Source: an uncultured Poribacteria bacterium (lineage in GTDB: Bacteria > Poribacteria > WGA-4E > WGA-3G). From it: a stretch of 64,000 nucleotides of DNA. Every line of letters starts with the position of its first letter. Position 1 is the stretch's first letter. A program made the position numbers and the translations under genes. The notes beneath the pieces are model-generated. The model did not search any database. It was not told the DNA's origin and was given only the letters and a program-made list of their open reading frames with translations. Location: positions 1,404,481 to 1,468,480 of the forward strand of contig OY282383.1 of the NCBI GenBank assembly GCA_958295855.1, written 5' to 3'. This document shows, piece after piece, positions 1,278-28,949 of this stretch.

Positions 1278-1489
1278 ATACCGAGAACGACAGACAGGCA
1301 TTAGCCCTGCAAAGCAGGGACAATGCCAATTATTTGTAGGGGAAACCGAGCCTTGTGCCGGTTTCCCCTCAACTCAAATCAGAAACCTCCGACGAGAACT
1401 ACAAGCAACAAAAACAACAGCAAAAACCACCAGTGCTAAACAAGGCCGAAGAAAGGACAAACTGATAAGCCATAACCAAAATAAAAAAG

Positions 1490-2275
1490 ATGAGACTGAC
1501 TACCTTCGTCCTTTGTGGCGTTCTACTGCTATTCGGTTGCAATACCGATGAAGATTCCCACCCACCCCTTTCCGAACCAAGCGTGCAAGGAATGCCAAAC
1601 TATTTCCCCGATGCTGTCGGAAGCAGATGGGTTTACCAGGAAGCTAGCGGTATGCGATGGGCGCGGGAGGTTACAGACGAGCGCGGCACTCATGGAGAAG
1701 GTTATCAGGGCTTTGCCTATATGCCACCGGTTTCCCAAACCGTATTTGACTATCTGAAACCGGATGTCTATCGCGTTACGGAAAACCAGGTCCTTTTCGT
1801 CGTCAGTGAAAACATCGACAGCTACGTTCAAACTGAGCTCCCCAAAGCAGCGCAAGATGAATTCGCGGGTTTGGAACTGAACGTTGCAATAGAGGCCATA
1901 TCACACCCCGAACTCGTTTTCTTCCATATTCCACTAACCTCCAATTTCCGGTGGGATGCCCTCAATGTGACAGTTAGCGGGAACATCATCTTGCAAAATC
2001 TCGTACTGCTTCAGATTCCCTTTGAGGTGGATATAAGCGTCAAAGGAGAGGTTGTTTCCGAAAGTTCACTTGAAACGCCTGCCGGGAGCTTTGAGAAGAC
2101 ATATCAAATTGAATATCAGACAGAAATCACATACATTCTTTTTTCGGAAGCGGAGACGACGCGGCAGAGTCAGACAGTATGGTTTGCTCCGCATGTCGGC
2201 ATTGTCAAAATCGAAGATGAACGCGGCGTAACGGAGCTCACTGAGTACAAGGTAGGAGCGATGTCCGATTTGTAG
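1490..2275 (+). CDS. hypothetical lipoprotein
   Basis: Signal peptide with an LLLFGC lipobox at the N-terminus. There is no recognisable catalytic motif. Confidence 0.5.
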   Translation: MRLTTFVLCGVLLLFGCNTDEDSHPPLSEPSVQGMPNYFPDAVGSRWVYQEASGMRWAREVTDERGTHGEGYQGFAYMPPVSQTVFDYLKPDVYRVTENQVLFVVSENIDSYVQTELPKAAQDEFAGLELNVAIEAISHPELVFFHIPLTSNFRWDALNVTVSGNIILQNLVLLQIPFEVDISVKGEVVSESSLETPAGSFEKTYQIEYQTEITYILFSEAETTRQSQTVWFAPHVGIVKIEDERGVTELTEYKVGAMSDL

Positions 2276-2297
2276 GGGCAGTGCCTTGTGCCTGCCC
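2273..2297. repeat. B-family palindromic repeat (reverse orientation), ggggcagtgccttgtgcctgccc
   Basis: It matches the consensus gggcaggcacaaggcactgcccctac seen about 14 times in the window. Confidence 0.8.
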
Positions 2298-2360: not shown

Positions 2361-2389
2361 CCTATTTCTCCGCAAGGAATGTCGAAAAA

Positions 2390-3487
2390 ATGAAAGTTGT
2401 TATTTTAAGCGACAACAAACCGGGGCATTACAAGCAATCCTTAGGTATTGTCGAAAAATTGCCTGAATGCCGAATAGAATGGCTTGAGGTGCAATTCCGG
2501 CGTAAGTGGCGCGATAACCTTCTGCGCGTCTTTATGTGTATTTTTGGAGGCGTACCCCTCCCCATACTGTTCCTCCACGCCCTTCTCCGCTGGAGCCTCA
2601 CCCCGGCTGCTTACAATGCTCTCGCGCGCCTTCAAGCCGCTGACGTTATCCTTTCGACAGGTTCATCTGTGGCAGCTGTCAATCTACTCCTTGGCAGGCT
2701 TCTCCATGCCAAGACGGTCACCTGTCGCCATCCTTCACCGTTAGGCACGCGCCATTTTGACCTCGCGATTCTCCCGATGCTCTCGTGGCCCAGCGCGGCG
2801 CGCAAGGACAATGTGTGCAAAACTATCGGCGTGCCAAATCCGATCTCACCCGCAAATTTAGATGCATTGAAAAAGCAAGTACGAAAAGATATGAAACTGT
2901 CAGACAGCGCGCGGATTGGCATACTCCTCGGTGGCAATGACCGGCACGAAACTGTCACCGAAGCACATGCAAAGCGTTTGATTGACATCTGTCGGGCAAT
3001 TGCTGAAGAAATGAACGTACAAATATTAGTGACGACTTCACGTCGAACGTCTCCTGCTGTAACAGCATACTTGGCTACCGCGCTCAAACAGGCGGACTGG
3101 TGTCCATTATTTATTACCCCCGACAGCCCTTCAGAACTTGCCGACCCGTATCAAGCCATTCTCGCCCTAAGCGATCTGCTTATCGTCACCGCCGATAGCT
3201 TCTCAATGGTATGTGAGGCGGCGAGCAGTGGACGCAGGGTTATCATCCTAACGCTTGAACGTAGTTTAACCACTATTGAAAATGGTGGCAAACCTTCCCG
3301 CGCGCGACAGCCCAAGCGGTACCAGGTTTATCGCTATATGGCAGAACGTGCTATCGTGAAACAATGCGGACTTGATAACTTGGCCCCACAACTCACAGCG
3401 GCGTTTACCTCGGATGCTATCATCTCCTCACTCCAAGATACGAAAATAGCTGCCCGTGCCATCCGTTGTTTAGTAGCTAACAGTTAA
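2390..3487 (+). CDS. ELM1 / DUF1022 family protein (mitochondrial-fission ELM1-like, glycosyltransferase-like fold)
   Basis: Motifs DNKPGHYKQSLG, ILLGGNDRHE, TTSRRTSP and TADSFSMVCEA are typical of PF06258. The start was chosen at MKVVIL, downstream of the upstream repeats. Confidence 0.7.
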   Translation: MKVVILSDNKPGHYKQSLGIVEKLPECRIEWLEVQFRRKWRDNLLRVFMCIFGGVPLPILFLHALLRWSLTPAAYNALARLQAADVILSTGSSVAAVNLLLGRLLHAKTVTCRHPSPLGTRHFDLAILPMLSWPSAARKDNVCKTIGVPNPISPANLDALKKQVRKDMKLSDSARIGILLGGNDRHETVTEAHAKRLIDICRAIAEEMNVQILVTTSRRTSPAVTAYLATALKQADWCPLFITPDSPSELADPYQAILALSDLLIVTADSFSMVCEAASSGRRVIILTLERSLTTIENGGKPSRARQPKRYQVYRYMAERAIVKQCGLDNLAPQLTAAFTSDAIISSLQDTKIAARAIRCLVANS

Positions 3488-3562
3488 TCGGGAAAAATAG
3501 TGGAACTTCTTTTCACATTCGGTGTGACAACCAGTGCGATATGGAAGTTGATACAAATCAGT

Positions 3563-3737
3563 TTTTGTCATTCCTTGCGGAGTAATCAGCAAATGTAAGA
3601 AATAAAAAAGTTGTTCATTGGCCATTCACAACTTGGTATGAAACCCCTGCTTTGCAGGGGCAAATACCATTGGCAGGATACCAAAAACGCGCGCATTAGC
3701 GCGCCTCGTAGCTCTCGTCAGAGGTTTCTGATGCAAG
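3563..3737. repeat. composite nested repeat: D-left + E (terminator-like hairpin) + A hairpin + D-right
   Basis: tcattccttgcggagtaatcag ... gtaagaaataaaaaagttgttcattggccattcacaacttgg ... cccctgctttgcaggggcaaataccattgg ... ctctcgtcagaggtttctgatgcaag. The same architecture recurs at 63078-63243. Confidence 0.8.
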
Positions 3738-4018
3738 TTTTTTAATGCTTAATTAGCAGGGAACACACTACAACTCATTACGAAACCCGATTTTGACAGG
3801 TAAAAATCCCCTGCGTCAGGGGATAAATCGGTTGTGAATAACAACCCATCCATGATAAATTCCTTATCACGCTGTGTTTATCCGCTGACGAAGCAAAGCG
3901 GGGCATTATACCTCAACGGAAAAATCGGAGCAGAACCCCAATTAATGGAGCTCTGACGCAAGGTTTACATTGCAAAATGTGGAATCCGAATTGTTGATCA
4001 AACTGAAGGAGATAAACA

Positions 4019-5284
4019 ATGAAAGCCAAACACCTTGTACGAACACTTACCCTCCTAGTCGCTTTGGGAACAGTCGCATTTTTCGTAGCGCGCCCAGGTG
4101 CGCAAACAACTGAAGACGCTTGGAAGGCTTGGGTAGACGAACAGACCGAGACTGTGCTAAGATCTGCGGGAGAAATGGATGAAGCACGCCGCACTGAAAT
4201 GCGCGCCAGTATTCGGGCGAAGTTTTCGGCACTCGCTGCAGCGTTGAAAAACGAGGTCGCGTCGCCACCGCAGGCTGAGGACTACGTTAACTTGCAAACG
4301 GTCAAAGAGCTACGGGATGCCTATGACGAGGACTACAACCGCAGGCATCAGACTACCACCGTACGCGTGACATATAAGGCAGGAGACTCTGAAATTTTCA
4401 CCTATGATGAGAATATTCCGCTCGCCGAGGTCGACGCAAAATATCCACGCGATGCATGGCTCCAGAGGCTTCTTGATAGAGGTGGCACAATTGAGAACGC
4501 AGACGCGTATTGGGAATACCTGTTCCTGCGAGATACGTTAATGCATGTTGAAGAACATCCGCAGGTGTGGACATCCGGACTGTTCGGCATCCCGCCGACG
4601 AAGGAGTGGGAAACCTATAAAACGGCTTACATTGAGCGAGAACTCAGTCGGATTCAAAAAACCAAGCAGACATCGCACCGATTCCTAGAAGGGTTGCACA
4701 GTTTGCACCCGCACAATTGGGAGCAGCATCTAAAGGTACCTCATGTCCTAATCCCTGAATTGCCTAAGGTGACTTCCTTCACTGTGCATAAGCACTATAG
4801 CGGACCACAAACCGTCAAGGCACTCCGGGCCGCTTATGACGAGAAGTACAACGAGCGGTATGCCATGACTTCAGGAAGTGTCGTTTATAAACTCAATAGT
4901 GTCACGATTCTTGAATATCAGACCCCGCTCCCGATAAGCGAAGTGGAGGCGAAATATCCGCGCGACGAGTGGCTGCAAATGCTTCTTGAAAAAGGTATCA
5001 CTATTGACAATTTTGAAGAATATTGGACATATCTATCGCAGCGGGAAACATTGGTGCAGATTGAAAAGCATCCGGAAGTCTGGTCTTCCGGGCTTTTCAG
5101 CATTCTGCCCACCGACGATTGGGAAACCTATAAAGCCGCTTACTTGAAGCAAAACATTGAGAAACTTCGCGGCGAACGCTATGGCGTGGAAATAGGAGAG
5201 GACATCCACAAAGCCGAAACAGACGCCCGTGAGTTTGAGAGGCGAATTAGAGAACGGTTACAACGTCCGTTACTCGACCGGTAG
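4019..5284 (+). CDS. secreted hypothetical protein with two ~130-aa internal repeats (KYPRDAWLQ-LL-KG-TIENF motif family)
   Basis: N-terminal signal peptide. A duplicated module AKYPRD(A/E)WLQ(R/M)LL..G.TI(E/D)N...YW.YL...W.SGLF..P...WETYK.AY is present. It is paralogous to the gene at 8641-10041. Confidence 0.6.
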   Translation: MKAKHLVRTLTLLVALGTVAFFVARPGAQTTEDAWKAWVDEQTETVLRSAGEMDEARRTEMRASIRAKFSALAAALKNEVASPPQAEDYVNLQTVKELRDAYDEDYNRRHQTTTVRVTYKAGDSEIFTYDENIPLAEVDAKYPRDAWLQRLLDRGGTIENADAYWEYLFLRDTLMHVEEHPQVWTSGLFGIPPTKEWETYKTAYIERELSRIQKTKQTSHRFLEGLHSLHPHNWEQHLKVPHVLIPELPKVTSFTVHKHYSGPQTVKALRAAYDEKYNERYAMTSGSVVYKLNSVTILEYQTPLPISEVEAKYPRDEWLQMLLEKGITIDNFEEYWTYLSQRETLVQIEKHPEVWSSGLFSILPTDDWETYKAAYLKQNIEKLRGERYGVEIGEDIHKAETDAREFERRIRERLQRPLLDR

Positions 5285-5436
5285 ATTGCGTTGAATTTGC
5301 GCTGTATGGCGAGGGCTTCGTACCTCGCCATTTTCCCTTAATTCCTGGCCAGTACGAAATTTGCCCTCCACCGGTTGATAATATCCTGAGGCGAACAGAT
5401 ATCCATCGTACCGAAAATCATGGTATTTACCCATGC

Positions 5437-5530
5437 TTTACATCAGAAACCTCCGACGAGATTTTCAAGGTTCTCCGTTAAGACTACATAATGCCGTCAA
5501 GGTACTAGGCATAGACGAAAAAATCAAATG
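5437..5530. repeat. F-family repeat (reverse orientation)
   Basis: It matches copies at 21745-21832 and 23470-23548: tcgtctatgcctagtaccttga..gcattatgtagtcttaa...tcgtcggaggtttctgatg. Confidence 0.7.
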
Positions 5531-5785: not shown

Positions 5786-6697
5786 ATGCTACAATATGAT
5801 CCCGTAGCGAAGCATCTGCTTGACCTGTTTTCTGAAGAGTTTGCAGCGTTAGCATTTGAGGGCACAGCGGTTGAAGTGTTAGAGAAACTGGACACCGAGC
5901 AACCCACCGTCGAGGTGCATCGCGACGATATGACGTTTAAGGTTCGCCTGCCAGATGAGGGAGAGGCGATTCTTCATATAGAATTACAAACTGGCGATAG
6001 CACAGACAAACCGATGCCGCTGCGGATGCTGGGGTATGCGAGTTTCCTTGTGGTTCGACATGAGATGTCGGTGTATTCGATGGTGCTGTATCTACGTCCG
6101 TCTGCGGGCCGGCATGACCCGGGGCATTATGGTTATGGCAATCCGGACTTGGGTTTGCAGTTCAACTATCGGGTGATTCGGTTGCGCGAGTTAGATGGAC
6201 AATCCGTTTTGGATAGTGGTTGTGTAGGGTTGTTGCCTTTCACGCCGTTAATGGCGGCCCCTGCGGGGTTGTCAGCGTCGGCGTGGGTAGAAACCTGCGT
6301 AGCTGCGGTGAAATCAGCGTCGGTTGACAAGCAGACGCGTGCGACGCTGTTGTTTGGTATGTCTGTGCTTGGGAGTTTGGCGCATGCGCCGGAGCTCTTT
6401 GAAAAATCAATGTCGGAGGACATCATGCAAGAGTCACCCTTTTACCAAGTGCACTTTGGAAAGGTGATGCAACGAGGGGTTGAACAAGGTATTGAACAAG
6501 GTATTGAACGCGGTGCGCGTGAGAATGCCATAGAGAATATTCTCACGGTGCTCACGGCGCGCTTCTCGCAGGACGATGCACACACCGTGCAGCCAACGCT
6601 TGAAACGATTACCGACCTGCATCGCCTGAAGCAGTTACATCTGTCTGCTGTGCTTGCGGCCAATTTTCAAACGTTCCTGCAAACGCTGGAAGCGTAG
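5786..6697 (+). CDS. rpn: Rpn-family recombination-promoting nuclease / putative transposase (PD-(D/E)xK YhgA-like N-domain + DUF4351 C-domain)
   Basis: Characteristic (EQGI)n tetrapeptide repeat and a C-terminal DUF4351-like segment. The N-terminal region is YhgA-like. The track start at 5747 overlaps the promoter and was rejected. Confidence 0.65.
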   Translation: MLQYDPVAKHLLDLFSEEFAALAFEGTAVEVLEKLDTEQPTVEVHRDDMTFKVRLPDEGEAILHIELQTGDSTDKPMPLRMLGYASFLVVRHEMSVYSMVLYLRPSAGRHDPGHYGYGNPDLGLQFNYRVIRLRELDGQSVLDSGCVGLLPFTPLMAAPAGLSASAWVETCVAAVKSASVDKQTRATLLFGMSVLGSLAHAPELFEKSMSEDIMQESPFYQVHFGKVMQRGVEQGIEQGIERGARENAIENILTVLTARFSQDDAHTVQPTLETITDLHRLKQLHLSAVLAANFQTFLQTLEA

Positions 6698-6767
6698 AGC
6701 CGCTGCATCGAGAAACGGGGGCGTGATAGTTCGTAGGCGTTGTGCTGAATGTTATCACGCCTCTTGT

Positions 6768-7295
6768 GGTTGTGTAGGGTTGTTGCCTTTCACGCCGTTG
6801 ATGTCAGTGCCTGCGGGTGTGTCTGCTGAGGCGTGGGTAGAAACCTGCGTAGGTGCGGTGCAGTCAGCGTCGGTTGACAAGCAGACGCGTGCGACGCTGT
6901 TGTTTGGTATGTCTGTGCTTGGGAGTTTGGCGCATGCGCCGGAGCTCTTTCAAAAATCAATATCGGAGGACATCATGCAAGAGTCACCCTTTTACCAAGT
7001 GCACTTTGGAAAGGTGATGCAACGAGGGGTTGAACAAGGTATTGAACAAGGTATTGAACAAGGTATTGAACAAGGTATTGAACAAGGTATTGAACAAGGT
7101 ATTGAACGCGGTGCGCGTGAGAATGCCATAGAGAATATTCTCACGGTGCTCACGGCGCGCTTCTCGCAGGACGATGCGCACATCGTGCAGCCAACGCTTG
7201 AAACGATTACCGACCTGCATCGCCTGAAGCAGTTACATCTGTCTGCTGTGCTTGCACCCAATTTTCAAACGTTCCTGCAAACGCTGGAAGCGTAA
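6768..7295 (+). pseudogene. tandem partial duplicate of rpn 3' half (DUF4351 region) with expanded EQGI repeat
   Basis: 6768-7298 is about 95% identical to 6216-6697. The 12-nt unit caaggtattgaa is present six times here versus twice in the parent copy. Confidence 0.6.
7031..7108 (+). repeat. 12-nt tandem repeat (ggtattgaacaa)x6 encoding (EQGI)6
   Basis: Perfect tandem copies are visible in the sequence. Confidence 0.9.
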
Positions 7296-8640: not shown

Positions 8641-10041
8641 ATGAAGCACGTTGGACTAACTATTCTACTTTTGCTCATTTTCGGCACAACCTTTGTTGGG
8701 TGTCACATGATGCGAAACCTCAAGGTGAGGACAGAGAAATATACCGGACCCCAAACCCCTGAAGCCCTCATGGAAGCGTTTGATACCAAGTACAGTGCTC
8801 GGACAGCAGACACAAAGTGGGCTAGTACTGTAGAGAGATCTTATGGCGAAAAACGCAGCATTGCGTTTACGCTGACAGATATGGATACCAAATACCCGCG
8901 CGACGCGTGGCTTCAGATGCTCCTCAATAAAGGTGTAACGATAGAGAATTTCAAGGCTTATGATGACTACCTCAATATACGCTCGGATTTGATTTTGAAA
9001 GAATTTTATCACACCGGATATGATTGGGAAACTGCTAGAACAGCGTATATTGACACCCAGATTCAGGAGTATCAACTTATCAGTGATGCAAAGCAAGCCA
9101 ACCCAGAGGTGAAAGATTGGGTTGTGTTAGGTGAAAACGTGCTGCCTTCTATTCCGGGGATAATTTACGTACGAAAAACGGAATCAGGGGCTAGCATCTG
9201 GTATATGGCAAGTTCCAAAACAACATCAGGGGTGGTCAAGGGCCCGGAACTCTCTGATAAACAGAAGTCGGATTTATTGAATAGAGGGGTGGAGCCGGAG
9301 GGATGGGAAGTTGTCTATCTTGATGAAAAGGGAAACCTCAAGGTGAGGACAGAGAAATATACCGGACCCCAAACCCCTGAAGCCCTCATGGAAGCGGAGA
9401 AATATACCGGACCCCAAACCCCTGAAGCCCTCATGGAAGCGTTTGATACCAAGTACAGTGCTCGGACAGCAGACGCAAAGTGGGCTAGTACTGTAGATAC
9501 ACCTTATTTGGGCGAAAAACGCAGCATTGCGTTTACGCTGACAGATATGGATACCAAATACCCGCGCGACGCGTGGCTTCAGATGCTCCTCAATAAAGGT
9601 ATAACGATAGAGAATTTCAAGGCTTATGATGGGTACCTCAATATACGCTCGGGTTTGATTTCTAAAGAATTTTATCACACCGGATATGATTGGGAAACTG
9701 CTAGAACAGCGTATATTGACACCCAGATTCAGGAGTATCAACTTATCAGTGATGCAAAGCAAGCCAACCCAGAGGTGAAAGATTGGGTTGTGTTAGGTGA
9801 AAACGTGCTGCCTTCTATTCCGGGGATAATTTACGTACGAAAAACGGAATCAGGGGCTAGCATCTGGTATATGGTAAGTTCCACAACAACATCACGGAAT
9901 GGAAGAGCCACATCGGTGGTCAAGGGCCCGGAACTCTCTGAGAAACAGAAGTCAGATTTATTGGATAGAGGGGTGGAGCCGAAGGGATGGGAAGTTGTCT
10001 ATCTTGATGAAAAGGGAAACCTCATCTTGCCGGATAGATAG
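8641..10041 (+). CDS. secreted hypothetical protein, two near-identical ~210-aa tandem modules (paralog of 4019-5284)
   Basis: Signal peptide. Modules at about 8716-9335 and 9336-10020 are about 95% identical at the nucleotide level. They share the TKYPRDAWLQMLLNKG(V/I)TIENF motif. The second module carries a 42-bp microduplication, EKYTGPQTPEALMEA x2. Confidence 0.6.
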   Translation: MKHVGLTILLLLIFGTTFVGCHMMRNLKVRTEKYTGPQTPEALMEAFDTKYSARTADTKWASTVERSYGEKRSIAFTLTDMDTKYPRDAWLQMLLNKGVTIENFKAYDDYLNIRSDLILKEFYHTGYDWETARTAYIDTQIQEYQLISDAKQANPEVKDWVVLGENVLPSIPGIIYVRKTESGASIWYMASSKTTSGVVKGPELSDKQKSDLLNRGVEPEGWEVVYLDEKGNLKVRTEKYTGPQTPEALMEAEKYTGPQTPEALMEAFDTKYSARTADAKWASTVDTPYLGEKRSIAFTLTDMDTKYPRDAWLQMLLNKGITIENFKAYDGYLNIRSGLISKEFYHTGYDWETARTAYIDTQIQEYQLISDAKQANPEVKDWVVLGENVLPSIPGIIYVRKTESGASIWYMVSSTTTSRNGRATSVVKGPELSEKQKSDLLDRGVEPKGWEVVYLDEKGNLILPDR

Positions 10042-10181: not shown

Positions 10182-11414
10182 ATGTCCAACCAATTGGCAA
10201 TTTCAGGCGGCACGCCTATACGCAACATAGAAAACAACCCGTGGCCCTCATGGCCGTTAAATACACCTCAAGAATGGGAATCCAAGATTGAGCCACTGCT
10301 CCGGCAAGTGTATCTGAGTGGTAACGAAGGCTCTGGCGGTACAATGATTGAGCGTTTCAGCGAACAATACGCACGGTATTCTGGAACGAACTACGCGCTC
10401 TTTATGCCGCACGGCACCGATTCCATCAGTGCTGCCTTAGCCGGTGCGCTCGACCTCGATGGATTTAGCGATGGCGGAGAAGTCATCGTGCCGAACTATA
10501 CGTTCGTAGCGACTGCAAGCGCGGTCTTGGAACGTCGATGCACCGTAGCGTTTGTAGATATTTCACCCGAGACTTTTACGCTCGACGCCGAGGCTGTTGA
10601 AGCCGCAATTCGGCCCGAAACCCGTGCTATTTTGCCTGTCCATCTCGGCGGGCACCCAGCAGATATGGGGGCACTACAAGAGATTGCCCAACAGCATCAA
10701 CTCGCAATTATTGAAGATTGCGCGCAGGCCCACGGTGCGGAATACCACACAAAAAAGGTGGGATCCCTCAGCGATGTTGGCGCGTTTAGCTTCCAAGCCT
10801 CTAAAAATCTGACTTCCGGCGAAGGCGGCATGGTCACCACGAACGACAAAGACATTCACGACCGGGTTTGTGCCTTTATGAATGTCGGACGGGCACCTGG
10901 CGGCGCGAGATGGGAATATCCACGGCTGGGATGGAATTACCGTCCGTCAGAATATCTCGCTGCGATATTGCAAGTGCGGTTGGAACTCCTGGAAACACAA
11001 ACAGATCTCCGCAATCGGAATGCTGCCTACCTTTCCAACGCGTTGGAGACAATTCCCGGTATCACACCGCCTAAACTTGCCACATGGGTTACCAAACACG
11101 GGTATCACCTGTACTGCTTGAAGTACAACCCTGAAGAGTTCGGTGGCACATCTCGGCAGGAATTTGTGAACGCGCTGTCTGCTGAAGGTATTCCATGTTC
11201 AATCGGCTACCGGTCGCCGCTGTCACAGGAGCCGGGAATGGCACACGTTGCTCAGAAGTACCCACACCTTATCCGGACCTTGCCCTGTCCGAACGCAGCG
11301 TTGGTTTGCGAACAGAGCGTGTGGCTCTTCCAAAACCTCTTCCTCGGTTCCAAGACAGACATGGCCCAGATCGTGGCAGCTATCACTAAAATTCAGCGTG
11401 CATGGCATGAATAG
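10182..11414 (+). CDS. DegT/DnrJ/EryC1/StrS-family PLP-dependent aminotransferase
   Basis: Fold-type I sugar aminotransferase pattern. The family-typical N-terminus ISGGTPIR... is present, and a lysine-containing FSFQASKNLTSGEGG segment marks the PLP site. Confidence 0.75.
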   Translation: MSNQLAISGGTPIRNIENNPWPSWPLNTPQEWESKIEPLLRQVYLSGNEGSGGTMIERFSEQYARYSGTNYALFMPHGTDSISAALAGALDLDGFSDGGEVIVPNYTFVATASAVLERRCTVAFVDISPETFTLDAEAVEAAIRPETRAILPVHLGGHPADMGALQEIAQQHQLAIIEDCAQAHGAEYHTKKVGSLSDVGAFSFQASKNLTSGEGGMVTTNDKDIHDRVCAFMNVGRAPGGARWEYPRLGWNYRPSEYLAAILQVRLELLETQTDLRNRNAAYLSNALETIPGITPPKLATWVTKHGYHLYCLKYNPEEFGGTSRQEFVNALSAEGIPCSIGYRSPLSQEPGMAHVAQKYPHLIRTLPCPNAALVCEQSVWLFQNLFLGSKTDMAQIVAAITKIQRAWHE

Positions 11415-13221
11415 ACCGCGCAGCACACCGCTCCTTGTTTACGATAACGACTGCGATTTTTGCCGATACTGGATTGAGCAGTGGCGGCACGTCACTGGGG
11501 AGCGTGTTCACTACGCGCCCTACCAAGAGGTCTCGGCGCAGTTTCCGCAGATACCGCTTTCAGCATTTGAAACCTCGGTGCAGTTGATTTTGGAAAACGG
11601 AACGGTGTTGAGCGGCACCGAGGCTATCCTGCGTGCCTTGAACAACGGCTGGATGCTCTGGTGCTACTACCACTTGCCCGGGTTCATGAGCGTGACAGAG
11701 GCAGTCTATCGCTTCATTGCACAGCACCGTCCGTTTTTCTCCCGATTGACGCGATGGTTGTGGGGGACACATACTGAGCGAACAACGTTCTGCTTTTCGC
11801 GCTGGCTGTTTCTGCGGGTACTCGGTTGTATCTATCTTATCGCATTTTTTTCTCTGTGGGTGCAAATTCACGGGCTTGTTGGAAGCAATGGGATTTTACC
11901 GGCGGAGCAATATTTGGCAGATGTCCATCAACAAATTGGGACGAGAGGCTATCACCTTTTTCCAACGCTGTTTTGGCTGAATCCGACAGATGCATGCCTC
12001 CATTTTTTGTGTGCTGGGGGTGTTCTTTTATCTTTCCTCCTCATCGCGGGCATTTTTGCTCCTTTCACCTTAGTCGGTTTGTGGGGGTTTTATCTGTCGC
12101 TTGTGACGGTCGGGCAAGTCTTTCTCAGCTTTCAATGGGATGTGCTGCTGTTAGAGGCAGGGTTTTTGGCAATCTTTTTCGCGCCGATGCAACTGCGCGA
12201 TGCATTTACACGTGCTTGGGAACCTTCCTCCGCTTTTTTGTGGCTTTTACGCTGGCTCCTATTTCGCTTGATGTTTGCCTCTGGGTTCGTTAAACTTGCT
12301 AGCGATGAGACATGGCGAAACCTTACTGCCCTCAACTTCCATTATGAAACGCAGCCCTTACCGACGTGGATAGGGTGGTATGTGCATCAGTTGCCCGAGT
12401 GGTTCCACAAAATTTCAGTTATCGGTATGTTTGGCGTTGAGTTAGTCATTCCGTTTCTGATTTTCGCCCCGCGACGTTTACGAACTATAGGGTGTATCGG
12501 ATTGGTTGGGCTACAACTGTTGATTCTTCTGACAGGGAATTACTGTTTTTTCAATCTGCTGACGATTGCGCTGTGTCTACTTCTCATCGACGACCTGACG
12601 TGGAAGAGGCTGCTACCCAAACGGTTCATGCCGGGCATTTGCCCGATCCAACTGCCGCCTCGCCGATATGGACGAATCTGCATAGCAGGTGTGACGGTAC
12701 TACTCTTTCTGTTGAGTAGCATCCGATTCGGTGGGCAACTTTTCAGAGAAGCGCGGCTGCCGGATGTTGCCTGGATCTCGCCATTTCGGAGCGTCAACAC
12801 CTACGGCCTCTTTGCAGATATGACTGAGACGAGGCCGGAAATTGTCGTTGAAGGCAGCAACGACCGGCTAACATGGACAACTTACCAATTTCGATGGAAA
12901 CCGGGTGAACTAACGCGTGCTCCCGGATGGGTCGCGCCGCATCAACCACGACTAGATTGGCAGATGTGGTTTGCTGCTCTCCAAGGGAGTTATCAGAATA
13001 CATCGTGGTTTCTTAATTTTGTGGCGGCACTGCTACAAGGAAAACCTGAGGTGCTGAAATTGTTAGCAGAAAACCCGTTTCCGGACAGACCTCCGCGCTA
13101 TATCCGGGCAACCCTTTACGATTACCGCTTCACCGAAATTGCCACGAAACGTGCGGCGGGAACGTGGTGGGCCCGAGAATGGAAGGGGATTTATTGCCCT
13201 GCAATTTCCCTCCGAAAGTAG
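11407..13221 (+). CDS. DCC1-like thiol-disulfide oxidoreductase (DUF393) fused to lipase-maturation-factor/HTTM-like membrane domain
   Basis: N-terminal LLVYDNDCDFCRYWI, a DUF393 CxxC motif. The remainder is polytopic, with LMF1/HTTM-like W-rich loops. ATGA overlap with the upstream stop gives translational coupling. Confidence 0.6.
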   Translation: MNRPRSTPLLVYDNDCDFCRYWIEQWRHVTGERVHYAPYQEVSAQFPQIPLSAFETSVQLILENGTVLSGTEAILRALNNGWMLWCYYHLPGFMSVTEAVYRFIAQHRPFFSRLTRWLWGTHTERTTFCFSRWLFLRVLGCIYLIAFFSLWVQIHGLVGSNGILPAEQYLADVHQQIGTRGYHLFPTLFWLNPTDACLHFLCAGGVLLSFLLIAGIFAPFTLVGLWGFYLSLVTVGQVFLSFQWDVLLLEAGFLAIFFAPMQLRDAFTRAWEPSSAFLWLLRWLLFRLMFASGFVKLASDETWRNLTALNFHYETQPLPTWIGWYVHQLPEWFHKISVIGMFGVELVIPFLIFAPRRLRTIGCIGLVGLQLLILLTGNYCFFNLLTIALCLLLIDDLTWKRLLPKRFMPGICPIQLPPRRYGRICIAGVTVLLFLLSSIRFGGQLFREARLPDVAWISPFRSVNTYGLFADMTETRPEIVVEGSNDRLTWTTYQFRWKPGELTRAPGWVAPHQPRLDWQMWFAALQGSYQNTSWFLNFVAALLQGKPEVLKLLAENPFPDRPPRYIRATLYDYRFTEIATKRAAGTWWAREWKGIYCPAISLRK

Positions 13222-13314
13222 CAGGCACGCTCCGCCGTGCCGTTGGCCAAACGAAAGTAGCCGGCACACACCGCCGTGCCGTTAAACCATTTCACGAATT
13301 AGATAGGGGAATTT

Positions 13315-18592: not shown

Positions 18593-18703
18593 CAATGGTA
18601 TTTGCCCCTGCTTTGCAGGGGTTTCATACCAAGTTGTGAATTTTGATGAACAACTTTTTTATTTCTTACTTATGCTGATTTCTCGGCAAGGAATATCGAA
18701 AAA
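18593..18703. repeat. composite: A hairpin + E terminator hairpin (reverse) + D-left (reverse) ending in RBS/ATG of scpA
   Basis: ccaatggtatttgcccctgctttgcagggg ... aagttgtgaattttgatgaacaacttttttatttctt ... ttctcggcaaggaatatcgaaaaaATG. Confidence 0.75.
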
Positions 18704-19483
18704 ATGCCACATAAGCTAGTTGAAACAACATCTACTATTCCAGCTATCCCTTCCATCTACTCTGTCAAACTAGAAGGCTTTGAGGGACCACTTGACCTGC
18801 TCCTCCATCTTATTCAGAAAGAGGAGATGGATATTCATGACATCCACATCGCTCAGATCACCGACCGGTATTTGGAATATGTGAATTTGATGGAGCAGCT
18901 AGATTTGGATGTTGCCTCCGAATTTTTGGTCATGGCAGCAACACTTCTCCATATTAAATCGCAAAGCATCCTTCCGCACTTTCCTAGAGATGGAATCTCA
19001 GATTCTGAGCATGCTATGGGGGACGAAGAGAATCTGGTCCGGCAGCTATTGGAGTATAAACAGTTTAAAGAAGCAGCACAAGTGTTGGAAGTTTATGCAG
19101 AACGGCGCACGTCGGTATATAGCAGAAACCCGAAGTTACACGCCGATTTAGATGGAGTACGCGAATTTGAGATTAAAGCTACGCTGTTCGATCTGCTCAC
19201 CGCTTTCAAGAATGTGAATGAACGGCTTGCGGTGGTGGAACCTGAAGAGGTTTATGAAACGGTGGAAGAGGAAACAATTACCGTTGAGGGCAAAATCGCC
19301 TTGATCGAAAGGCTGTTGGCAAGTGAAGACCAGCTGCTCTTTGATGATCTATTTCCGTTATCTGCAACTCGAGCGGATAGGATCGTCACATTCCTGGCTA
19401 TTTTGGAACTTATTCGGTTAGGCACAATTGTCACTGTACAAACTGATTATTTTGAGAGTATCTATATCGTTAAACAGTTGTAG
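18704..19483 (+). CDS. scpA: segregation and condensation protein A
   Basis: EGFEGPLDLLLHLIQKEEMDI...ITDRYLEY, the ScpA N-terminus. Confidence 0.8.
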   Translation: MPHKLVETTSTIPAIPSIYSVKLEGFEGPLDLLLHLIQKEEMDIHDIHIAQITDRYLEYVNLMEQLDLDVASEFLVMAATLLHIKSQSILPHFPRDGISDSEHAMGDEENLVRQLLEYKQFKEAAQVLEVYAERRTSVYSRNPKLHADLDGVREFEIKATLFDLLTAFKNVNERLAVVEPEEVYETVEEETITVEGKIALIERLLASEDQLLFDDLFPLSATRADRIVTFLAILELIRLGTIVTVQTDYFESIYIVKQL

Positions 19484-19520
19484 GGCGGCATTGTGCTGCC
19501 AACAAATAGGAACTTTACTT

Positions 19521-20120
19521 ATGGATTCTGAATTCGGGGTTGAAAACCCCTCACACGCTGAACGTCTAATAGATGAACCTGCCCCGATATCGGGGCAAGC
19601 CCCTCAGTCGATCTTGGAGGCAATTCTGTTCGCCGCGAGCGAACCGATTTCGGTGAAACAGTTTCAACACGCGCTTCCGGGGATATCAACACGCGAGATT
19701 CGGAAGGGGCTCACCCAACTTCGCGACGACTATCAACAGATGAACCGAAGTTTCCGCCTCGTTGAAATTGCGAATGGGTATCAAATCTGTACCTGCCCTG
19801 AGTATTCGGAATGGATTCGGAAGTTTTATACCCAGCAGGTGCGCGTCACGCTGTCGCCCCCTGCACTGGAAACGCTTGCAATTGTTGCCTATAAGCAGCC
19901 TGTCACGCGCGGTGATGTAGCTGCAATTCGGGGGGTAAACAGCGATGGCGTTCTTAATTCGCTTGTTGAGAAAGGGCTTGTTCGCATCGCGGGCAGAAAA
20001 GAGGGGGCAGGCCGCTCCCTACTCTTTGCCACCACCGACACGTTCCTCCAACATTTCGGATTGAAAGACTCTTCCGAATTGCCTTCGCTTGACGAGTTTT
20101 TGTTGTTCCTTGCGGAGTAA
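19521..20120 (+). CDS. scpB: segregation and condensation protein B
   Basis: ILEAILFAASEPISVKQ, and winged-helix repeats typical of ScpB. Confidence 0.75.
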   Translation: MDSEFGVENPSHAERLIDEPAPISGQAPQSILEAILFAASEPISVKQFQHALPGISTREIRKGLTQLRDDYQQMNRSFRLVEIANGYQICTCPEYSEWIRKFYTQQVRVTLSPPALETLAIVAYKQPVTRGDVAAIRGVNSDGVLNSLVEKGLVRIAGRKEGAGRSLLFATTDTFLQHFGLKDSSELPSLDEFLLFLAE

Positions 20121-20182
20121 TATAATGGCAAGGTAGCTTTAGAGATGCACTGTAGCTCTCGTCGGAGGTTTCTGATGCAAGT
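20100..20182. repeat. D-family ~85-nt repeat
   Basis: ttccttgcggagtaat...gcactgtagctctcgtcggaggtttctgatgcaag. Confidence 0.8.
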
Positions 20183-20258
20183 TTTGGTGATACACATTTT
20201 TGTGGGCACGGTTTCTAACGGGGCTACGTCCGGGAGCGAGTGACAGCAGCGTGCAGGA

Positions 20259-20362
20259 TAGGGTAGGCACAAGGCACTACCCCTACTTTTTCAGCACAAA
20301 CCTCTACTGAAATTTGACGTGTGATTCTAGAGGTAAGGGTAGGCACAAGGCACTACCCCTAC
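20259..20362. repeat. two B-family repeats (variant gggtaggcacaaggcactacccctac)
   Basis: Copies at 20259-20287 and 20337-20362. Confidence 0.8.
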
Positions 20363-20390
20363 GGATTTCTCCGCAAGGAAAGGCGAAAAA

Positions 20391-21719
20391 ATGAACTATA
20401 ACGCATGGTTTCAGTGCAGTGAAGGCTGCAACGACACCTACCCCCTGACCGAAATTATCTACCGATGCAAAAATTGTGATGGGTTGTTAGAGGTTCGGCA
20501 CGACATCGACGCTTTGAAATCGCGCAGAGCCGACGATTGGAAATGCCTTTTTGAGCAACGCTACATGCGAACCAAATACCCTTACGGAAGCGGAGTCTGG
20601 GGAAAAAAGGAACTTGTCTGTCCCACTATTGACGATGACAACATCATCTCTATGTATGAAGGCGGGACCAACCTGTTTTGGGCAGAACGCTTCGGTGAAC
20701 AATTGGGTGCCCCTGACTTGTGGATTAAGCAATGCGGAAACAGCCACACCGGCTCCTTCAAAGACCTCGGGATGACTGTGCTTGTTTCTATGGTAAAACA
20801 GATTATCGCCGAAGGGCGAGATATCCGAGCCGTTATGTGTGCTTCTACTGGAGATACCTCAGCAGCCTTGGCAGCTTATGCCTCTGCAGCAGGTATTCCC
20901 GCGGTTATTCTCTTGCCCAAAGAAAAGGTTACGCGCGAACAACTGATTCAACCGATTGCCAACGGCGCATTGACGCTCTCACTCGAAACAGATTTTGATG
21001 GATGCATGGATGTCGTCCAAAAACTCGCCGCACGGAAGGATTTCTATCTTGCCAATTCCATTAATTCCCTCCGCATTGAGGGACAGAAAACGATTAGCAT
21101 TGAGATAGTCCAGCAGTTTGATTGGGATGTTCCAGATTGGATTATCATTCCGGGCGGCAACCTCGGCAATGTTTCGGCACTCGGGCTCGGTTTTTTAATC
21201 ATGCAGGAACTCGGTATCATTGACAAACTGCCGCGCATCGCTTGTGCACAGGCCGAACGCGCGAATCCCCTCTACCGGAGTTATCAAACTGGGTTCACAG
21301 AGTTCCACGCTATTACTGCACAATCGACGCAGGCTACAGCGATTCAGATCGGGAACCCGGTTTCGGTTCATCGGGCCATCCGAACCTTGCGCCGGTTTGA
21401 TGGCATTGTCGACCAGGCTACGGAAGAAGAATTGGCGAACGCTGCAGCAAGAGCAGATAGGACTGGACTGTTCAATTGCCCGCATACAGGTGTCGCCTTA
21501 GCAGTCCTCATAAAAATGATCGCGCGCAAGCAGATTCTCCCAGATGACAGGGTCATCGTTATCTCTACAGCAAATGGCCTCAAATTCCCGAATTTCAAAG
21601 TAGGGTATCATAATGTCGCACCTGGTGAACCGCTACCGCGCTACCTAAACAAGCCGCTTGAATTGGAAGCAGACTATGAAGGCGTTCTGAAGCAGATTGA
21701 TGCCCACCTTAATGCCTAA
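20391..21719 (+). CDS. thrC: threonine synthase
   Basis: PLP-fold type II. Lysine motif SFKDLG, and full-length similarity to the ThrC pattern. Confidence 0.8.
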
Positions 21720-21744: not shown

Positions 21745-21832
21745 GTGTTTTTCGTCTATGCCTAGTACCTTGAGGGCATTATGTAGTCTTAAGGGCCTTG
21801 AAGATCTCGTCGGAGGTTTCTGATGTAAAGCG
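21745..21832. repeat. F-family repeat
   Basis: See 5437-5530. Confidence 0.7.
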
Positions 21833-21993
21833 GGGGTAAATACGATTCCTTGTAGGCGTGCTTTCCTAAGCGCACTTGAAAAAGAGCACGGTTGGAAACC
21901 TCGCCTACAAAGGAAAGTTAATATGAAAAATCACAGATTTTTCATAGTTTAACCTCCACAAAAGCACCTTGCTTCCTATCACATCCTACAAAT

Positions 21994-22070
21994 TTGCGTC
22001 AGAAACCTCTGACGAGATCTATAGTGCATTGTTAGACCTATCTTGCCTTCTCAATTCTCCGCAAGGAACG
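21994..22070. repeat. D-family repeat (reverse orientation)
   Basis: tgcgtcagaaacctctgacgagatctatagtgcattgttagacctatcttgccttctcaattctccgcaaggaacgac. Confidence 0.8.
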
Positions 22071-22090
22071 ACAAAAAGACTGAAAACCAG

Positions 22091-23372: not shown

Positions 23373-23469
23373 ACAAACCCATATTGCATTTGCATCACAC
23401 CCCTCTGACGAGATTTGTCGTATATTGCCATCCCTATCTTGCGTTTACCATGCACTGCAAAGGATTTTC

Positions 23470-23548
23470 GTCTATGCCTAGTACCTTGACAGCATTATGT
23501 AGTCTTAACGGAGAACCTTGAAGATTTCGTCGGAGGTTTCTGTTTCTC
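23470..23548. repeat. F-family repeat
   Basis: See 5437-5530. Confidence 0.7.
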
Positions 23549-26580: not shown

Positions 26581-26652
26581 GGTTTAACGGCACGGAGGTT
26601 GGTATTTGCCCCTGCTTTGCAGGGGTTAACACTCTTAGTGTGCCTACGATTT
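26581..26652. repeat. nested repeat: C-family palindrome (ggcacgg...gtgcctac) with an A hairpin inserted in its loop
   Basis: ggtttaacggcacggaggttggtatttgcccctgctttgcaggggttaacactcttagtgtgcctacg. A near-identical copy lies at 28621-28694 on the other side of acs. Confidence 0.8.
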
Positions 26653-26657: not shown

Positions 26658-28601
26658 CTACCGTCTGCCTTCAACCAATGCGTCAACCACTGTCGGATCG
26701 GCAAGGGTTGATGTGTCACCGAGTTCAGAGATGTCTCCTTCCGCGATTTTGCGGAGGATGCGCCGCATAATCTTGCCTGACCGGGTTTTTGGCAAGGCAG
26801 GCGTAAACTGGATCTTGTCGGGCGTGGCGATAGGTCCGATTTGTTGCCGCACCGCTTGTTTGATGCCCGTTTCTACTGTGTCAGAGGCAGATTCGCCTGT
26901 CATGAGGGTGACATACGCATAGATGCCTTGTCCCTTTATGTCGTGTGGGTATCCGACGACTGCAGCTTCTGCTACCGCTGCGTGTTGCCCGATCGCCCCT
27001 TCTACCTCGGCTGTGCCTAATCTGTGCCCGGAGACATTTAGCACATCGTCCACGCGGCCTGTAATCCAATAATAGCCGTCTTCATCGCGTAGTACACCGT
27101 CGCCAGTCATATAATAACCGGGGAACCGGCGAAAATAGGTATCAAGAAATCGCTCATGGTCTCCGTACACTGTTCGCATAATGCCAGGCCACGCTGTTTT
27201 AATACAGAGATAGCCGGTGGCGGGGTTGCCCTCCACCTCATTGCCAGCTTCATCCAAAATCACAGGTTCAATGCCAAAGAAGGGGAACGTAGCGGAGCCC
27301 GGCTTCAGTGGTGTCGCCGCGGGCAGGGGAGTTATCAGAATTCCGCCCGTTTCAGTCTGCCACCACGTATCTACAATCGGGCACCGTTCCTCGCCGACTG
27401 TGTTGTAATACCACAACCACTCTGGTTCTTTGATGGGTTCGCCGACTGTGCCGAGCAACCTAAGTGTGGTTCTGTCATACGGCTCAACCCACGCATCGCC
27501 TTCCTTCATCAAAGCGCGCAGAGCTGTGGGTGCTGTGTAAAAGATATTGATGCGATGCTTTTCGACTACCTGCCAAAAGCGTCCGAAGTCCGGATAATTC
27601 GGCACGCCTTCAAACATAACGCTAATGGCTCGATTTGCAAGCGGCCCGTAGATGATGTAAGAGTGCCCAGTAATCCAGCCGATATCCGCAGTGCACCAAT
27701 AGATGTCGCCTTCGTGGTAGTCAAAAATCTGTTGGTGTGTGTAGGAGGTATAGACAAGATAGCCACCTGTGGTGTGCAAAACGCCCTTCGGTTTTCCAGT
27801 TGACCCGGAGGTATAGAGAATGAAAAGCGGGTCTTCAGCATTCATTACTTCGGGTTCGCATGCTGTATCTGCTGTTGCCATTGCTTCGTGCCACCAAATA
27901 TCGCGCGCCGCGTCAAAATCAACCGCGTCGCCTGTGCGTTCCACGACAACTACCTTTTCAATAGAGGGGCACGCTGCAACCGCCGCGTCTGCGTTCGCCT
28001 TCATCGGGATGTCACTGCGGGGTCCGCGCATTGCGGTATCTTGCGTTATCAGGAGTTTGCAGGCGGAGTCGTTAATCCGATCTCTGAGGGATTCTGCTGA
28101 AAATGCGCCGAAGACGATGGAGTGAACGGCACCAATCCTTGCACACGCCAACATTGCAATCGCCAACTCTGGCACCATCTGTAGGTAGATACAGACCCGG
28201 TCGCCTTTCTCAATGCCTTGTGCTTTCAGGACATTAGCAAACTTTTTGACCTCGGCGAGGAGTTCACTGTAACTGAACGTCTTATCTTCAGAGGGATGGT
28301 TTCCTTCCCAGATAATAGCGGTTGCATCGCCGTGGCCTGCTTCCACGTGCCGGTCGAGGCAGTTATAGCATGCGTTCAGCGTGCCGCCTTCAAACCATTT
28401 TATTTCCGCGTTGACAAAGTCATAATCGCGAATCGTATCCCATTTTTGATACCACGTCAACCGTTCTGCAATTGTTGCCCAAAACGCTTCCTGGTTTTGA
28501 ATGGATTCGGCGTATTGTGCTTGATATGCTTCTAAACTGTTGACGTGTGCGTCACCGATTGGATAGGCAGTTTCCACCGGTGGAAAAACGTTGTTAGCCA
28601 T
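26658..28601 (-). CDS. acs: acetyl-coenzyme A synthetase (acetate--CoA ligase)
   Basis: 647 aa. AMP-binding motif [11 protein letters not shown] and an Acs-typical N-terminus. Confidence 0.85.
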
Positions 28602-28620: not shown

Positions 28621-28694
28621 GGTTTAACGGCACGGCGGTTGGTATTTGCCCCTGCTTTGCAGGGGTTAACACTCTTAGTGTGCCTACTACTTTG
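28621..28694. repeat. nested C[A] repeat, second copy flanking acs
   Basis: See 26581-26652. Confidence 0.8.
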
Positions 28695-28826
28695 GGCACC
28701 CGGATGTTTCTTGAAGGTGCGGTGCCAGATTTCTTTTGTATAATCGGGCAGCCGCGTTCCTCTCTAAACCATTCTATAGTAAAACTTAGAATCTGTCAAG
28801 TTACGAGCGAAGGTGCTCAGGGATTT

Positions 28827-28911: not shown

Positions 28912-28949
28912 TACCTTCTGAAGAGGGGAATGGCGCCCAGAGGTTGTTC

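Follow-up and report, generated by a model that had tools for sequence, protein, structure and literature searches.

Dense and nested small repeat families, including GTAG-tagged hairpins and a MITE-like element, in a Poribacteria genome

Results

Five small repeat families in a 64 kb window

The stretch studied here (hereafter the window) comprises 64 kb of contig OY282383.1 from an uncultured Poribacteria bacterium. Exact protein matches assign it to ENA sample ERZ19489113, and its GcvP protein has its nearest relatives among proteins named Candidatus Poribacteria. Scans of its open reading frames (ORFs) against NCBIfam and Pfam returned housekeeping genes only and no transposase, and a tRNA scan found no tRNA. 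Between and within these genes, which include gcvT, gcvH and gcvP of the glycine cleavage system, trkA, trkH and an acetyl-CoA synthetase gene (acs), lie copies of five families of small repeats, A to E, that code for no protein of their own. They are a crowded case of known types, namely repetitive extragenic palindromes (REPs), miniature inverted-repeat transposable elements (MITEs) and bacterial interspersed mosaic elements (BIMEs), and no new system: B and C belong with the REPs that carry a GTAG tag, A is an untagged palindrome, D is MITE-like, and the organization resembles the mosaics of BIMEs and of the cyanobacterial small dispersed repeats (SDRs). Noteworthy in this genome are the density of the repeats, their recent expansion, the many REPs that are read in frame inside genes, events in which older sequence was replaced, the rewriting of gene ends by D and the identity of B and C across phyla. 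We found no description of such repeats in the Poribacteria literature that was searched, and a full-text search retrieved no paper with the B sequence or the peptides encoded by B.

Copies were called with a repeat finder and fuzzy searches, which recovered at the same places, and in similar numbers, the families that a sequence-only reading of this DNA had distinguished by eye; its figure of well over 70 copies agrees with the approximately 75–80 copies of A to E that we counted. The A core, CCCCTGCTTTGCAGGGG, has 13 matches with at most two mismatches, compared with 0.01 expected from dinucleotide shuffles, and A2 (CCCCGCAAAGCGGGG) has six, two of which coincide with A matches; together with several loop variants, the A-type hairpins number about 20. 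Family B is represented by 12 copies and two B' variants (51631 and 51722). The C type amounts to about nine: five copies, two with an A palindrome in the loop (26581 and 28621) and those at 13258 and 60252. D has 20 right and 18 left ends, and E has nine copies. Confinement of the repeats to this locus would have pointed to a local duplication, and it is not what we observed, as A, A2, B, D and E recur both in the DNA that flanks the window and at L103, a locus of the same sample that is unrelated to it. The claim that almost every intergenic region and most intergenic DNA consist of such repeats was overstated. By self-BLAST, a conservative measure that misses short hairpins which would raise the share somewhat, repeats account for 3.2 kb of the 11.95 kb of intergenic DNA (27%), and 25 of the 44 spacers of at least 30 nt hold at least 20 nt of repeat; a further 563 nt of repeat lie within ORFs. 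Clustered regularly interspaced short palindromic repeats (CRISPR) were rejected as an identity for these elements, their spacing not being regular.

Comparison with close relatives

Two syntenic contigs were compared with the window. L001, from the same sample (ENA ERZ19489113), is approximately 96% identical in nucleotide sequence and syntenic with 46.1–64 kb of the window, and L097, from JGI metagenome 3300006541, is approximately 90–93% identical in genes and syntenic with 47.6–64 kb. Contigs L094–L096 and L098–L102 are 100% identical to the window and hence yielded no polymorphism data. Across its 20 kb, L097 is free of all the families, whereas the same stretch of the window has about 35 copies. 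Its gcvP-trkA spacer measures 19 nt versus 248 nt in the window and the spacer between trkH and the next gene 19 nt versus 190 nt, and in the window these two spacers consist of repeats to 89–100%. Between the window and L001, nearly all insertions and deletions longer than 15 nt are repeat units. Missing in L001 are an 88-nt D from a tandem array, 30 and 18 nt of B in gcvP, a 119-nt A2+E block and a 79-nt E+A module within a D, whereas a 78-nt A2 unit and an E+E+A block are present only in L001. Because L097 lacks any copy and the differences from L001 have the size of single units, we regard the families as mobile, or as having been so very recently; the insertion polymorphism between relatives to which the sequence-only reading had looked as a check is present. 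As judged from these alignments, the families multiplied once this lineage had separated from a relative at approximately 8–10% nucleotide divergence, and even genomes with a divergence of only about 4% do not have all their copies in common.

The GTAG-tagged hairpins B and C

On the strand opposite to that of most copies, B reads GTAG-GGGCAG-T-GC-CTTGT-GC-CTGCCC (26 nt) and C reads GTAG-CA-GGCACAC-TCC-GTGTGCC (~32–38 nt). B folds into a 6-bp stem, a 1-nt bulge, two more base pairs and a 5-nt loop (CTTGT on the GTAG strand), and C into a 7-bp stem (GGCACAC/GTGTGCC) with a 3-nt loop. On the plus strand, 10 of the 12 B copies end in ...CCCCTAC and the C copies in ...TGCTAC, which corresponds to GTAGGGG... 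and GTAGCA... on the other strand. GTAG REPs are defined by a stem of 5–13 bp, a loop of 2–20 nt and an unpaired GTAG at one end (PMC3733652). Since an unpaired GTAG beside a GC-rich hairpin is the published definition, and both the stem-loop and the unpaired GTAG are found in B and C, we assign the two families, from their sequence, to the GTAG-tagged REPs, a point that the sequence-only reading had missed. Among 25 distinct B-type variants, GTAGGGG, the CTTGT loop and CCC never change and the inner stem pairs covary, with 10, 8 and 3 double changes at pairs 10-21, 12-20 and 13-19, respectively; the outer five pairs were imposed by the selection of the variants and are not counted as evidence. 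In this set, 96.5% of the cells are paired, and none of 500 shuffles reached the observed score. The B and C hairpins and their kin located mainly outside genes are as follows.

2272–2297 (minus): B, the sole reverse-oriented copy
20261–20362 (plus): two B copies (20261–20286 and 20337–20362) with the compensated stem GGGTAG...CTACCC
29528–29620 (plus): two intergenic B copies (29528–29553 and 29595–29620) beside minus-strand genes
30536–30561 and 50438–50463 (plus): other B copies
1334–1369 (minus): member of a GTAGGGG...CTTGT...CCC superfamily, with a longer stem
13217–13281 (minus): two tandem C-type GTAG hairpins at the end of ORF 11407–13221
51852–51883 (plus): intergenic C, 27 nt before the start of an amidohydrolase gene

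A search with the Rfam 15 covariance models gave no match at gathering scores and two chance-level matches at E < 1. One of the latter, at 1285–1371 (E = 0.79), is to the Xanthomonas sRNA sX14, whose terminal hairpin loop in this match, GCCUUGUGC, equals the loop of the GTAGGGG...CTTGT hairpins; unrelated bacteria may have this loop in common in their REP-like hairpins.

Hairpins inside genes

Six of the 12 B matches and three of the five C matches lie in ORFs, as does a C2 in trkA, and for one of the B copies so counted (30536), the true start codon may be located downstream. Published GTAG REPs are predominantly extragenic; B and C are not. The clearest case is gcvP (ORF 56462–59431), which stays open through three B and two C copies and whose product matches TIGR00461 (glycine dehydrogenase) end to end with 1470 bits (cut-off 859). 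Its three B copies are read in all three frames, one of the resulting peptides being GAGTRHYPY. For this gene, the window was aligned with nine homologues that include L001 and L097.

56647–56672 (plus): B in gcvP, in frame; absent in L001 (net +30 nt) and in the other homologues
56978–57003 (plus): B in gcvP, second frame; present in L001, absent in L097 and seven other homologues (+27 nt)
57789–57814 (plus): B in gcvP, third frame; absent in L001 and L097, 32 nt in place of 14 ancestral nt
57695–57732 (plus): C variant in gcvP, in frame, +24 nt relative to L097; an identical 38-mer lies at 57914–57951
53426–53459 (plus): C in gcvT, in frame; stem GGCACAC, loop GGA, stem GTGTGCC, then TGCTAC
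53966–53991 (plus): B in gcvT, in frame near the C-terminus; +27 nt relative to L097
60252–60289 (plus): C2 in trkA, in frame, ~36 nt in place of ~27 ancestral nt (net +9); absent in L001 and L097
32966–32991 (plus): B in ORF 31475–33151, in frame

Both gcvP C copies are present in the window and in L001; one is absent in the other eight homologues, and the other, in a variable linker, has no aligned equivalent. The net length changes of the coding events are 0, +9, +18, +24, +27, +27 and +30 nt. The event without net change is the C of gcvT, where ~35 nt stand in place of an L097 segment of equal length with which they share 9 of 35 positions (26%), as random sequences would; the encoded peptide, LACYGTRSVPATF, aligns residue for residue with solved GcvT structures.

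Further changes were noticed in and near these genes. At the site of the first gcvP B, L097 (8460–8500, orthologous to window ~56640) holds another small hairpin-like insert, GGGCAGGGTGAACATGCCC, and insertions may have landed in this loop of GcvP more than once. The gcvT gene of L001 (8276–9413) was called as two overlapping ORFs owing to a 1-nt insertion (GGCGAGGGTAG versus GGCGAGGTAG) about 20 nt downstream of the in-frame C, which reflects either a genuine frameshift or an error in sequencing a homopolymer. Between gcvT and gcvH, a gene for a trypsin-like protease with TPR domains (54255–55993) is split into ORFs 54255–54692 and 55214–55993, and the ~520 nt between them contain two A-type hairpins (54844–54876 and 54912–54944). 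A single gene of 558 aa occupies the site in L097, and the gene is missing in L001 (84 nt between gcvT and gcvH); the split gene is probably a pseudogene disrupted by the repeats.

Element D and its composites with E and A

The region flagged by the sequence-only reading is a composite in which E and A sit inside D. It is listed here with the other D, E and A elements.

3560–3743 (plus): composite D(E+A); D left end TTCCTTGCGGAGTA at 3571–3584, E (AATGTAAGAAATAAAAAA plus hairpin) at 3592–3636, A palindrome TTGGTATGAAACCCCTGCTTTGCAGGGGCAAATACCA at 3633–3669, D right end GTAGCTCTCGTCAGAGGTTTCTGATGCAAG at 3708–3738
63076–63244 (plus): second D(E+A) composite, right after the trkH stop codon
52661–52930 (plus): three tandem D with a period of 87 nt, the first of which gives the stop codon of the amidohydrolase gene
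54065–54151 (plus): D that begins 2 nt past the gcvT stop codon
56357–56446 (plus): D that includes the gcvH stop codon; in L097, gcvH overlaps gcvP directly
59425–59684 (plus): two D followed by an inverted D, which fill the entire gcvP-trkA spacer; the first gives the gcvP stop codon, and the trkA ATG follows closely on the inverted left end
61111–61546 (plus): mosaic in the trkA-trkH spacer with D, A2 hairpin (61249–61281), E (61302–61359) and A-type hairpin (61367–61399); its part 61421–61546, a pair made up of a D right end and an inverted D, has a strong fold (z = −3.65)
20090–20185 (plus): D that overlaps the end of ORF 19428–20120
28823–28916 (plus): D among minus-strand genes, yet in plus orientation
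30406–30499 (plus): D in a divergent intergenic region
33775–33866 (plus): D that overlaps the stop codon of ORF 33120–33815
21748–21843 (plus): variant D2, with left end TTTTCGTC and a right module, ATCTCGTCGGAGGTTTCTGA, in common with D
23465–23548 (plus) and 5423–5522 (minus): other D2 copies
21988–22078 (minus): full D, reversed
2364–2394 (minus): inverted D left-end fragment CTCCGCAAGGAAnnnCGAAAAAATG, with a Shine-Dalgarno-like AAGGA 11 nt before the start codon of the gene at 2390; similar fragments lie at 18678–18708 and 20365–20395
26581–26647 (plus): C2 with an A palindrome in the loop; direct copy at 28621–28687, across acs
51588–51753 (plus): two tandem E+B' units, 92 nt apart, with B' being GGGTAGGCAYAAGGCCTACCCCTAC
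37253–37310 (plus): long form of E (AATGCACGTCGCATAAGTAAGAAATAAAAAA plus hairpin), followed by A
29147–29191, 50478–50508 (truncated), 54163–54220 and, on the minus strand, ~18625–18672: other E copies
18596–18632 (plus): representative A palindrome (TGGTATTTGCCCCTGCTTTGCAGGGG...ATACCA), fold −21 kcal/mol, z = −3.9
1304, 7329, 8561, 16039, 16093, 23340, 29336, 31590, 34074, 37327, 51790, 54852 and 54921: other A or A2 cores

The D consensus is 88 nt long. Its left end, TTCCTTGCGGAG, does not vary among 17 copies, and its right module, TCTCGTCGGAGGTTTYTGAYGCAAGG, is conserved. Its ends (CCTTGCGGAG and CTGACGCAAGG) form an imperfect terminal inverted repeat that pairs over 7–11 nt. D is a MITE-like element: it lies within the 70–300 bp typical of MITEs, is noncoding and carries terminal inverted repeats. 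T-runs flank it at both ends, and comparison with the empty sites of L097 reveals replaced sequence and no clear target-site duplication. Eight of the 14 forward left ends lie close to where a co-oriented gene ends upstream, at −15 to +26 nt from its stop codon, and the stop codon is inside D in five genes (gcvP, gcvH, the amidohydrolase gene and the ORFs ending at 20120 and 33815); relative to L097, D has overwritten the original C-terminus or stop codon at gene ends. At the other side of genes, three inverted left-end fragments place AAGGA exactly 11 nt before start codons. D lies beside genes and is probably co-transcribed. At the RNA level, we obtained neither a consensus fold (−4.9 kcal/mol) nor covariation for D, and single copies folded no better than shuffles. 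The core hairpin CGUCGGA/UCUGACG includes G-U pairs, so it forms on the sense strand only. A terminator scan returned 23 sites versus 21.6 expected, hence no enrichment, with three D cores flagged as terminator-like.

E is an A-rich module with two small hairpins, and A is a near-perfect palindrome of ~36 nt without a tag. A lies repeatedly inside or next to other hairpins, namely in C loops, directly after the E hairpin and, at L103, in the E hairpin loop, which A-type hairpins interrupt there; this suggests that A targets hairpin tips or single-stranded DNA. All the nestings that had been described before were confirmed (A in the C loops at 26581 and 28621, E+A in D at 3563 and 63078, and tandem E+B' at 51588–51753). 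Mosaic spacers of the BIME type extend over 51579–51909, 59432–59679, 61096–61557 and 63064–63253. Several of these arrangements differ in L001: the D orthologous to that at 63078 is a plain D without the 79-nt E+A module, only part of the D array at 52661–52930 is matched, with one 88-nt unit fewer, and the 119-nt A2+E block is missing from the trkA-trkH mosaic. As D(E+A) is itself repeated and the flanking D offers homology, the difference between plain D and D(E+A) at orthologous sites looks more like an exchange between D variants than a fresh insertion.

The two near-identical C2(A) copies, in direct orientation and 2040 nt apart, bracket the acetyl-CoA synthetase gene (26658–28601, minus strand), which could be chance or a composite unit. 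The window also holds large tandem repeats, in ORFs that could be assigned to no family, at 4426–5150, 6216–7294 and 8714–10024, with units of ~500–670 nt and 72–98% identity. ORF 8641–10041 (466 aa) is built of such repeated segments, which are unrelated to the small repeat families.

B and C in other phyla

In a scan of one genome per species, the exact B 22-mer was found in at least 92 stretches from at least 10 phyla. The hosts among the matches listed include Chloroflexota, several cyanobacteria, Latescibacterota, Bacteroidota, Methylococcales, Patescibacteria and Nitrospirae, among others, and the 22-mer is present in the complete chromosome of Chlorogloeopsis fritschii PCC 6912. Viral contigs gave no B match. 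Outside the window, B is often paired with a second, inverted hairpin, GTAGGGGCGnnCCCTTGTGGTCGCCC. At eight loci from other phyla (L008, L048, L052, L056, L067, L074, L076 and L080), B is preceded by two to four tandem partial copies of its 5' half. At least 120 metagenome contigs hold the exact C 23-mer, which there commonly forms head-to-head doublets extended by GTCCGC...GCGGAC; these resemble REPINs, the inverted REP doublets. B and C never occur together in these loci. The 618 kb of loci from other phyla that bear B contain no A, D or E, and D is absent from metagenome records as well. B and C alone are cosmopolitan, and A, D and E, on limited sampling, look lineage-specific.

Discussion

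How the repeats may have spread

The orientation of the repeats offers a first clue to their spread. Copies of B, C, D and E lie on the plus strand in 40 of 46 cases (p = 3e-7), and the plus orientation holds for every oriented copy beside minus-strand genes. GC skew is positive over most of the window, with a cumulative value that climbs to 1.34, and bias and skew together fit a mechanism that follows one of the two replication strands, of the kind known from the single-strand HUH transposases of the group that comprises the IS200/IS605 insertion sequences (ISs) and the REP-associated tyrosine transposases (RAYTs). We lean, with moderate confidence, towards a dense community of small repeats that are copied in trans by enzymes encoded elsewhere and made mosaic by nesting and recombination. 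One or more such enzymes would act from other sites in the genome, and for B and C the GTAG tags and the strand bias make a RAYT-type enzyme the best guess, in the form of a RAYT/IS200-type HUH tyrosine transposase that would act on single-stranded hairpin DNA. The nested appearance could arise by two routes: elements may insert into hairpin loops and into one another, or dispersed copies may recombine or undergo gene conversion, by which whole variants such as plain D and D(E+A) would be swapped. Within genes, only events that preserve the frame would survive, leaving short hairpin-encoded peptides in tolerant loops.

A number of observations weigh against this account. A RAYT or other Y1 transposase, expected also by the sequence-only reading, was not found in the window, its ±4.5-kb flanks, or 618 kb each of B-bearing and C-bearing loci, as searched with an HUH...Y regular expression and with phmmer using approximate RayT, IS200 and IS608 TnpA queries; as no RAYT or other transposase was found, the mobilizing enzyme is one that we infer. 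The sole match was an IS200 TnpA at a Chloroflexi locus, 4 kb from a B copy. Nor was a parent IS with D ends found, the D right-end pattern having no match in 241 million metagenome records. The unit thought to be moved by RAYTs is the REPIN, whereas B and C in the window are singletons or head-to-tail pairs in one orientation, without inverted doublets. REPINs are inherited vertically with their RAYT within a lineage, which is not the pattern of B and C, and their sequence identity across phyla is unexpected for co-evolving, vertically inherited REP-RAYT pairs. The tandem partial B copies, such as (GGGCAGGCACAAG)n, end at the apex of the hairpin, which suits the RAYT model poorly, and look like stuttered copying. 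Finally, the replacement of ancestral sequence in coding events is not predicted by a plain transposase model: the overwriting in gcvT (no net change), in trkA (27 to 36 nt) and at a B of gcvP (14 to 32 nt) is not something that known HUH transposition does, and substitutions are clustered next to one new gcvP B. The events that can be seen have certainly passed selection for an intact protein; the mechanism must still yield replacement outcomes.

Among 145 ORFs beside B in other phyla, Pfam showed no enriched mobile-element family within the 25 most frequent families listed. In L001 (1–1105, corresponding to window ~46072–46150), a TnpB-only element of the IS605 family (OrfB_IS605 plus a Cas12f-like domain) lies upstream of rpsO and is absent in the window; the 90%-identity cluster of this TnpB comprises 48 member sequences, and a second copy lies at L103 (4001–5173) with no adjacent TnpA. 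This IS is the sole nearby sign of IS200/IS605-type movement in the lineage. It was rejected as a parent element, since its ends are unrelated to A–E.

Alternative explanations

Copying by a transposase in trans competes, first, with templated patch copying, to which we allow a real if smaller chance. Here, a nascent strand that switches to an ectopic hairpin copy in the course of replication or repair and then switches back, or short-patch gene conversion, would overwrite the target without any transposase. Replacement events of variable net length (0 to +30 nt), substitutions clustered beside a new B and the lack of any transposase found are all as this process would have them, the ancestral sites of two gcvP B events hold CACAC or CACAAG, like the B loop, and the alternation of plain D with D(E+A) resembles conversion between D variants. 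The apparently stuttered 5' partial B copies and the cross-phylum identity of B and C, which suits the RAYT model poorly, point the same way. However, the coding events were filtered for frame and length, so that replacements may be over-represented among them, the microhomologies are short and few (n = 2), and the intergenic events align too poorly to serve as a test. The invariance of GTAG, the conserved loop and the strand bias are not obviously explained by patch copying.

A bolder proposal, speculative and in our view unlikely, is that B and C are pan-bacterial hairpins spread by structure-guided overwriting of targets of similar length by a horizontally transferred, unrecognized enzyme, with D rewriting gene ends. 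If this were true, classical transposition would play no part, overwriting would open essential genes to B and C without a shift of frame, GTAG hairpins of 22–26 nt would owe their identity from cyanobacteria and Chloroflexi to Bacteroidota and Poribacteria to the horizontal transfer of a highly specific enzyme, and D would supply stop codons as well as cassettes of ribosome-binding site and start codon.

It is improbable that the repeats are mainly functional cis-elements under selection and mobile only in second place, with D and E serving as 3'-end hairpins, terminators or cassettes of ribosome-binding site and start codon, and A, B and C as hairpins that bind protein or RNA. The location of D left ends near upstream stop codons and of AAGGA 11 nt before ATG, the G-U pairs that confine the D core hairpin to the sense strand, and the few terminator-like copies would agree with such roles, and published REPs also lie mostly downstream of genes (PMC3733652). 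Yet L097 lacks the repeats and its genes work with spacers of 19 nt, near-identical genomes differ in the copies that they carry, and repeats are found in coding sequence and associated with the split trypsin-TPR gene; moreover, D lacks a consensus structure, its single copies fold like shuffles, and terminator-like sites are not enriched. A local segmental duplication or assembly artefact, suggested at most by the local arrays (three D at 52661–52930, two E+B' at 51588–51753), is refuted by copies spread over all 64 kb, the flanks and the unrelated L103, by the same elements at the same sites in the independent 96% relative, by the 100% identity to the window of several redundant contigs in its assembly, and by B and C in hundreds of unrelated public assemblies.

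Relation to known repeats

The BIMEs of E. coli are intergenic mosaics of REP hairpins and other short motifs in variable order, located mostly after genes. The window has the same mosaic organization, with unrelated sequences, and adds an 88-nt MITE-like unit and true nesting in loops. The Nostoc modules SDR1–8, the subject of work by Elhai et al. in 2008, are reportedly 21–27 nt long and often hairpin-like, and their mobility is said to have been recognized by comparison of orthologous sites and to involve precise insertion. By their description (partly PMC4390886), SDRs resemble the repeats of the window in being hairpin modules that occur within larger repeats and genes and in having no known enzyme. 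They differ in host phylum, SDR hosts being cyanobacteria, although exact B is also found in cyanobacterial genomes, and the window adds the longer units D and E. The MITE/REP/BOX-like behaviour put forward in the sequence-only reading thus stands, in that the families are real, modular, nested and apparently mobile or recently so; that they are more modular than the classical examples is doubtful, as BIMEs and SDRs are likewise mosaic and nested.

GTAG REPs form several families per genome, some of them common to distant organisms, and are linked to RAYTs as their presumed mobilizers (Di Nocera et al. 2013, PMC3733652; Bertels and Rainey 2011, PMC3116915); intragenic copies are known as well, most numerous in Opitutus terrae of the Planctomycetes-Verrucomicrobia-Chlamydiae (PVC) group (PMC3733652). 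B and C share with them the short GC-rich stem-loops with GTAG at one end, the covarying stems, the plurality of families, the occurrence in distant organisms and the intragenic copies, and the doublets of C elsewhere are REPIN-like; they differ in that half are intragenic, that they are singletons in one orientation, that no RAYT was found, that they are identical across phyla and that they overwrite their targets. The Rickettsia palindromic elements (RPEs) are in-frame palindromes in functional genes to which they add short peptides (cited in PMC3733652). In comparison, RPE-1 is longer and adds tens of residues, whereas B and C add 0–10 and sometimes replace residues, and the sequences are unrelated. 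Like D, the bacterial MITEs Nezha, ERIC, NEMIS/Correia and RUP have terminal inverted repeats, are noncoding, lie near genes and form tandem or inverted arrays. D is set apart by T-run flanks without a clear target-site duplication, by the lack of any parent IS found and by its frequent overwriting of the upstream stop codon.

Conclusion

Three genomes that are 4–10% apart, one repeat-free, one intermediate and one heavily colonized, constitute a natural experiment on the colonization of a genome by small repeats, in which insertions, nestings and the rewriting of gene ends can be polarized against the repeat-free genome. REP-type hairpins are read in frame in core genes (those for the glycine cleavage proteins P and T and for TrkA), where they sometimes overwrite codons. 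For the annotation of sponge-symbiont genomes, such elements explain why spacers are inflated, gene ends look odd, genes are split and short ORFs are called spuriously. The REPs inside genes and the hairpins common to several phyla bear on how REPs and SDRs move, and on whether REPs are always inherited vertically with a RAYT.

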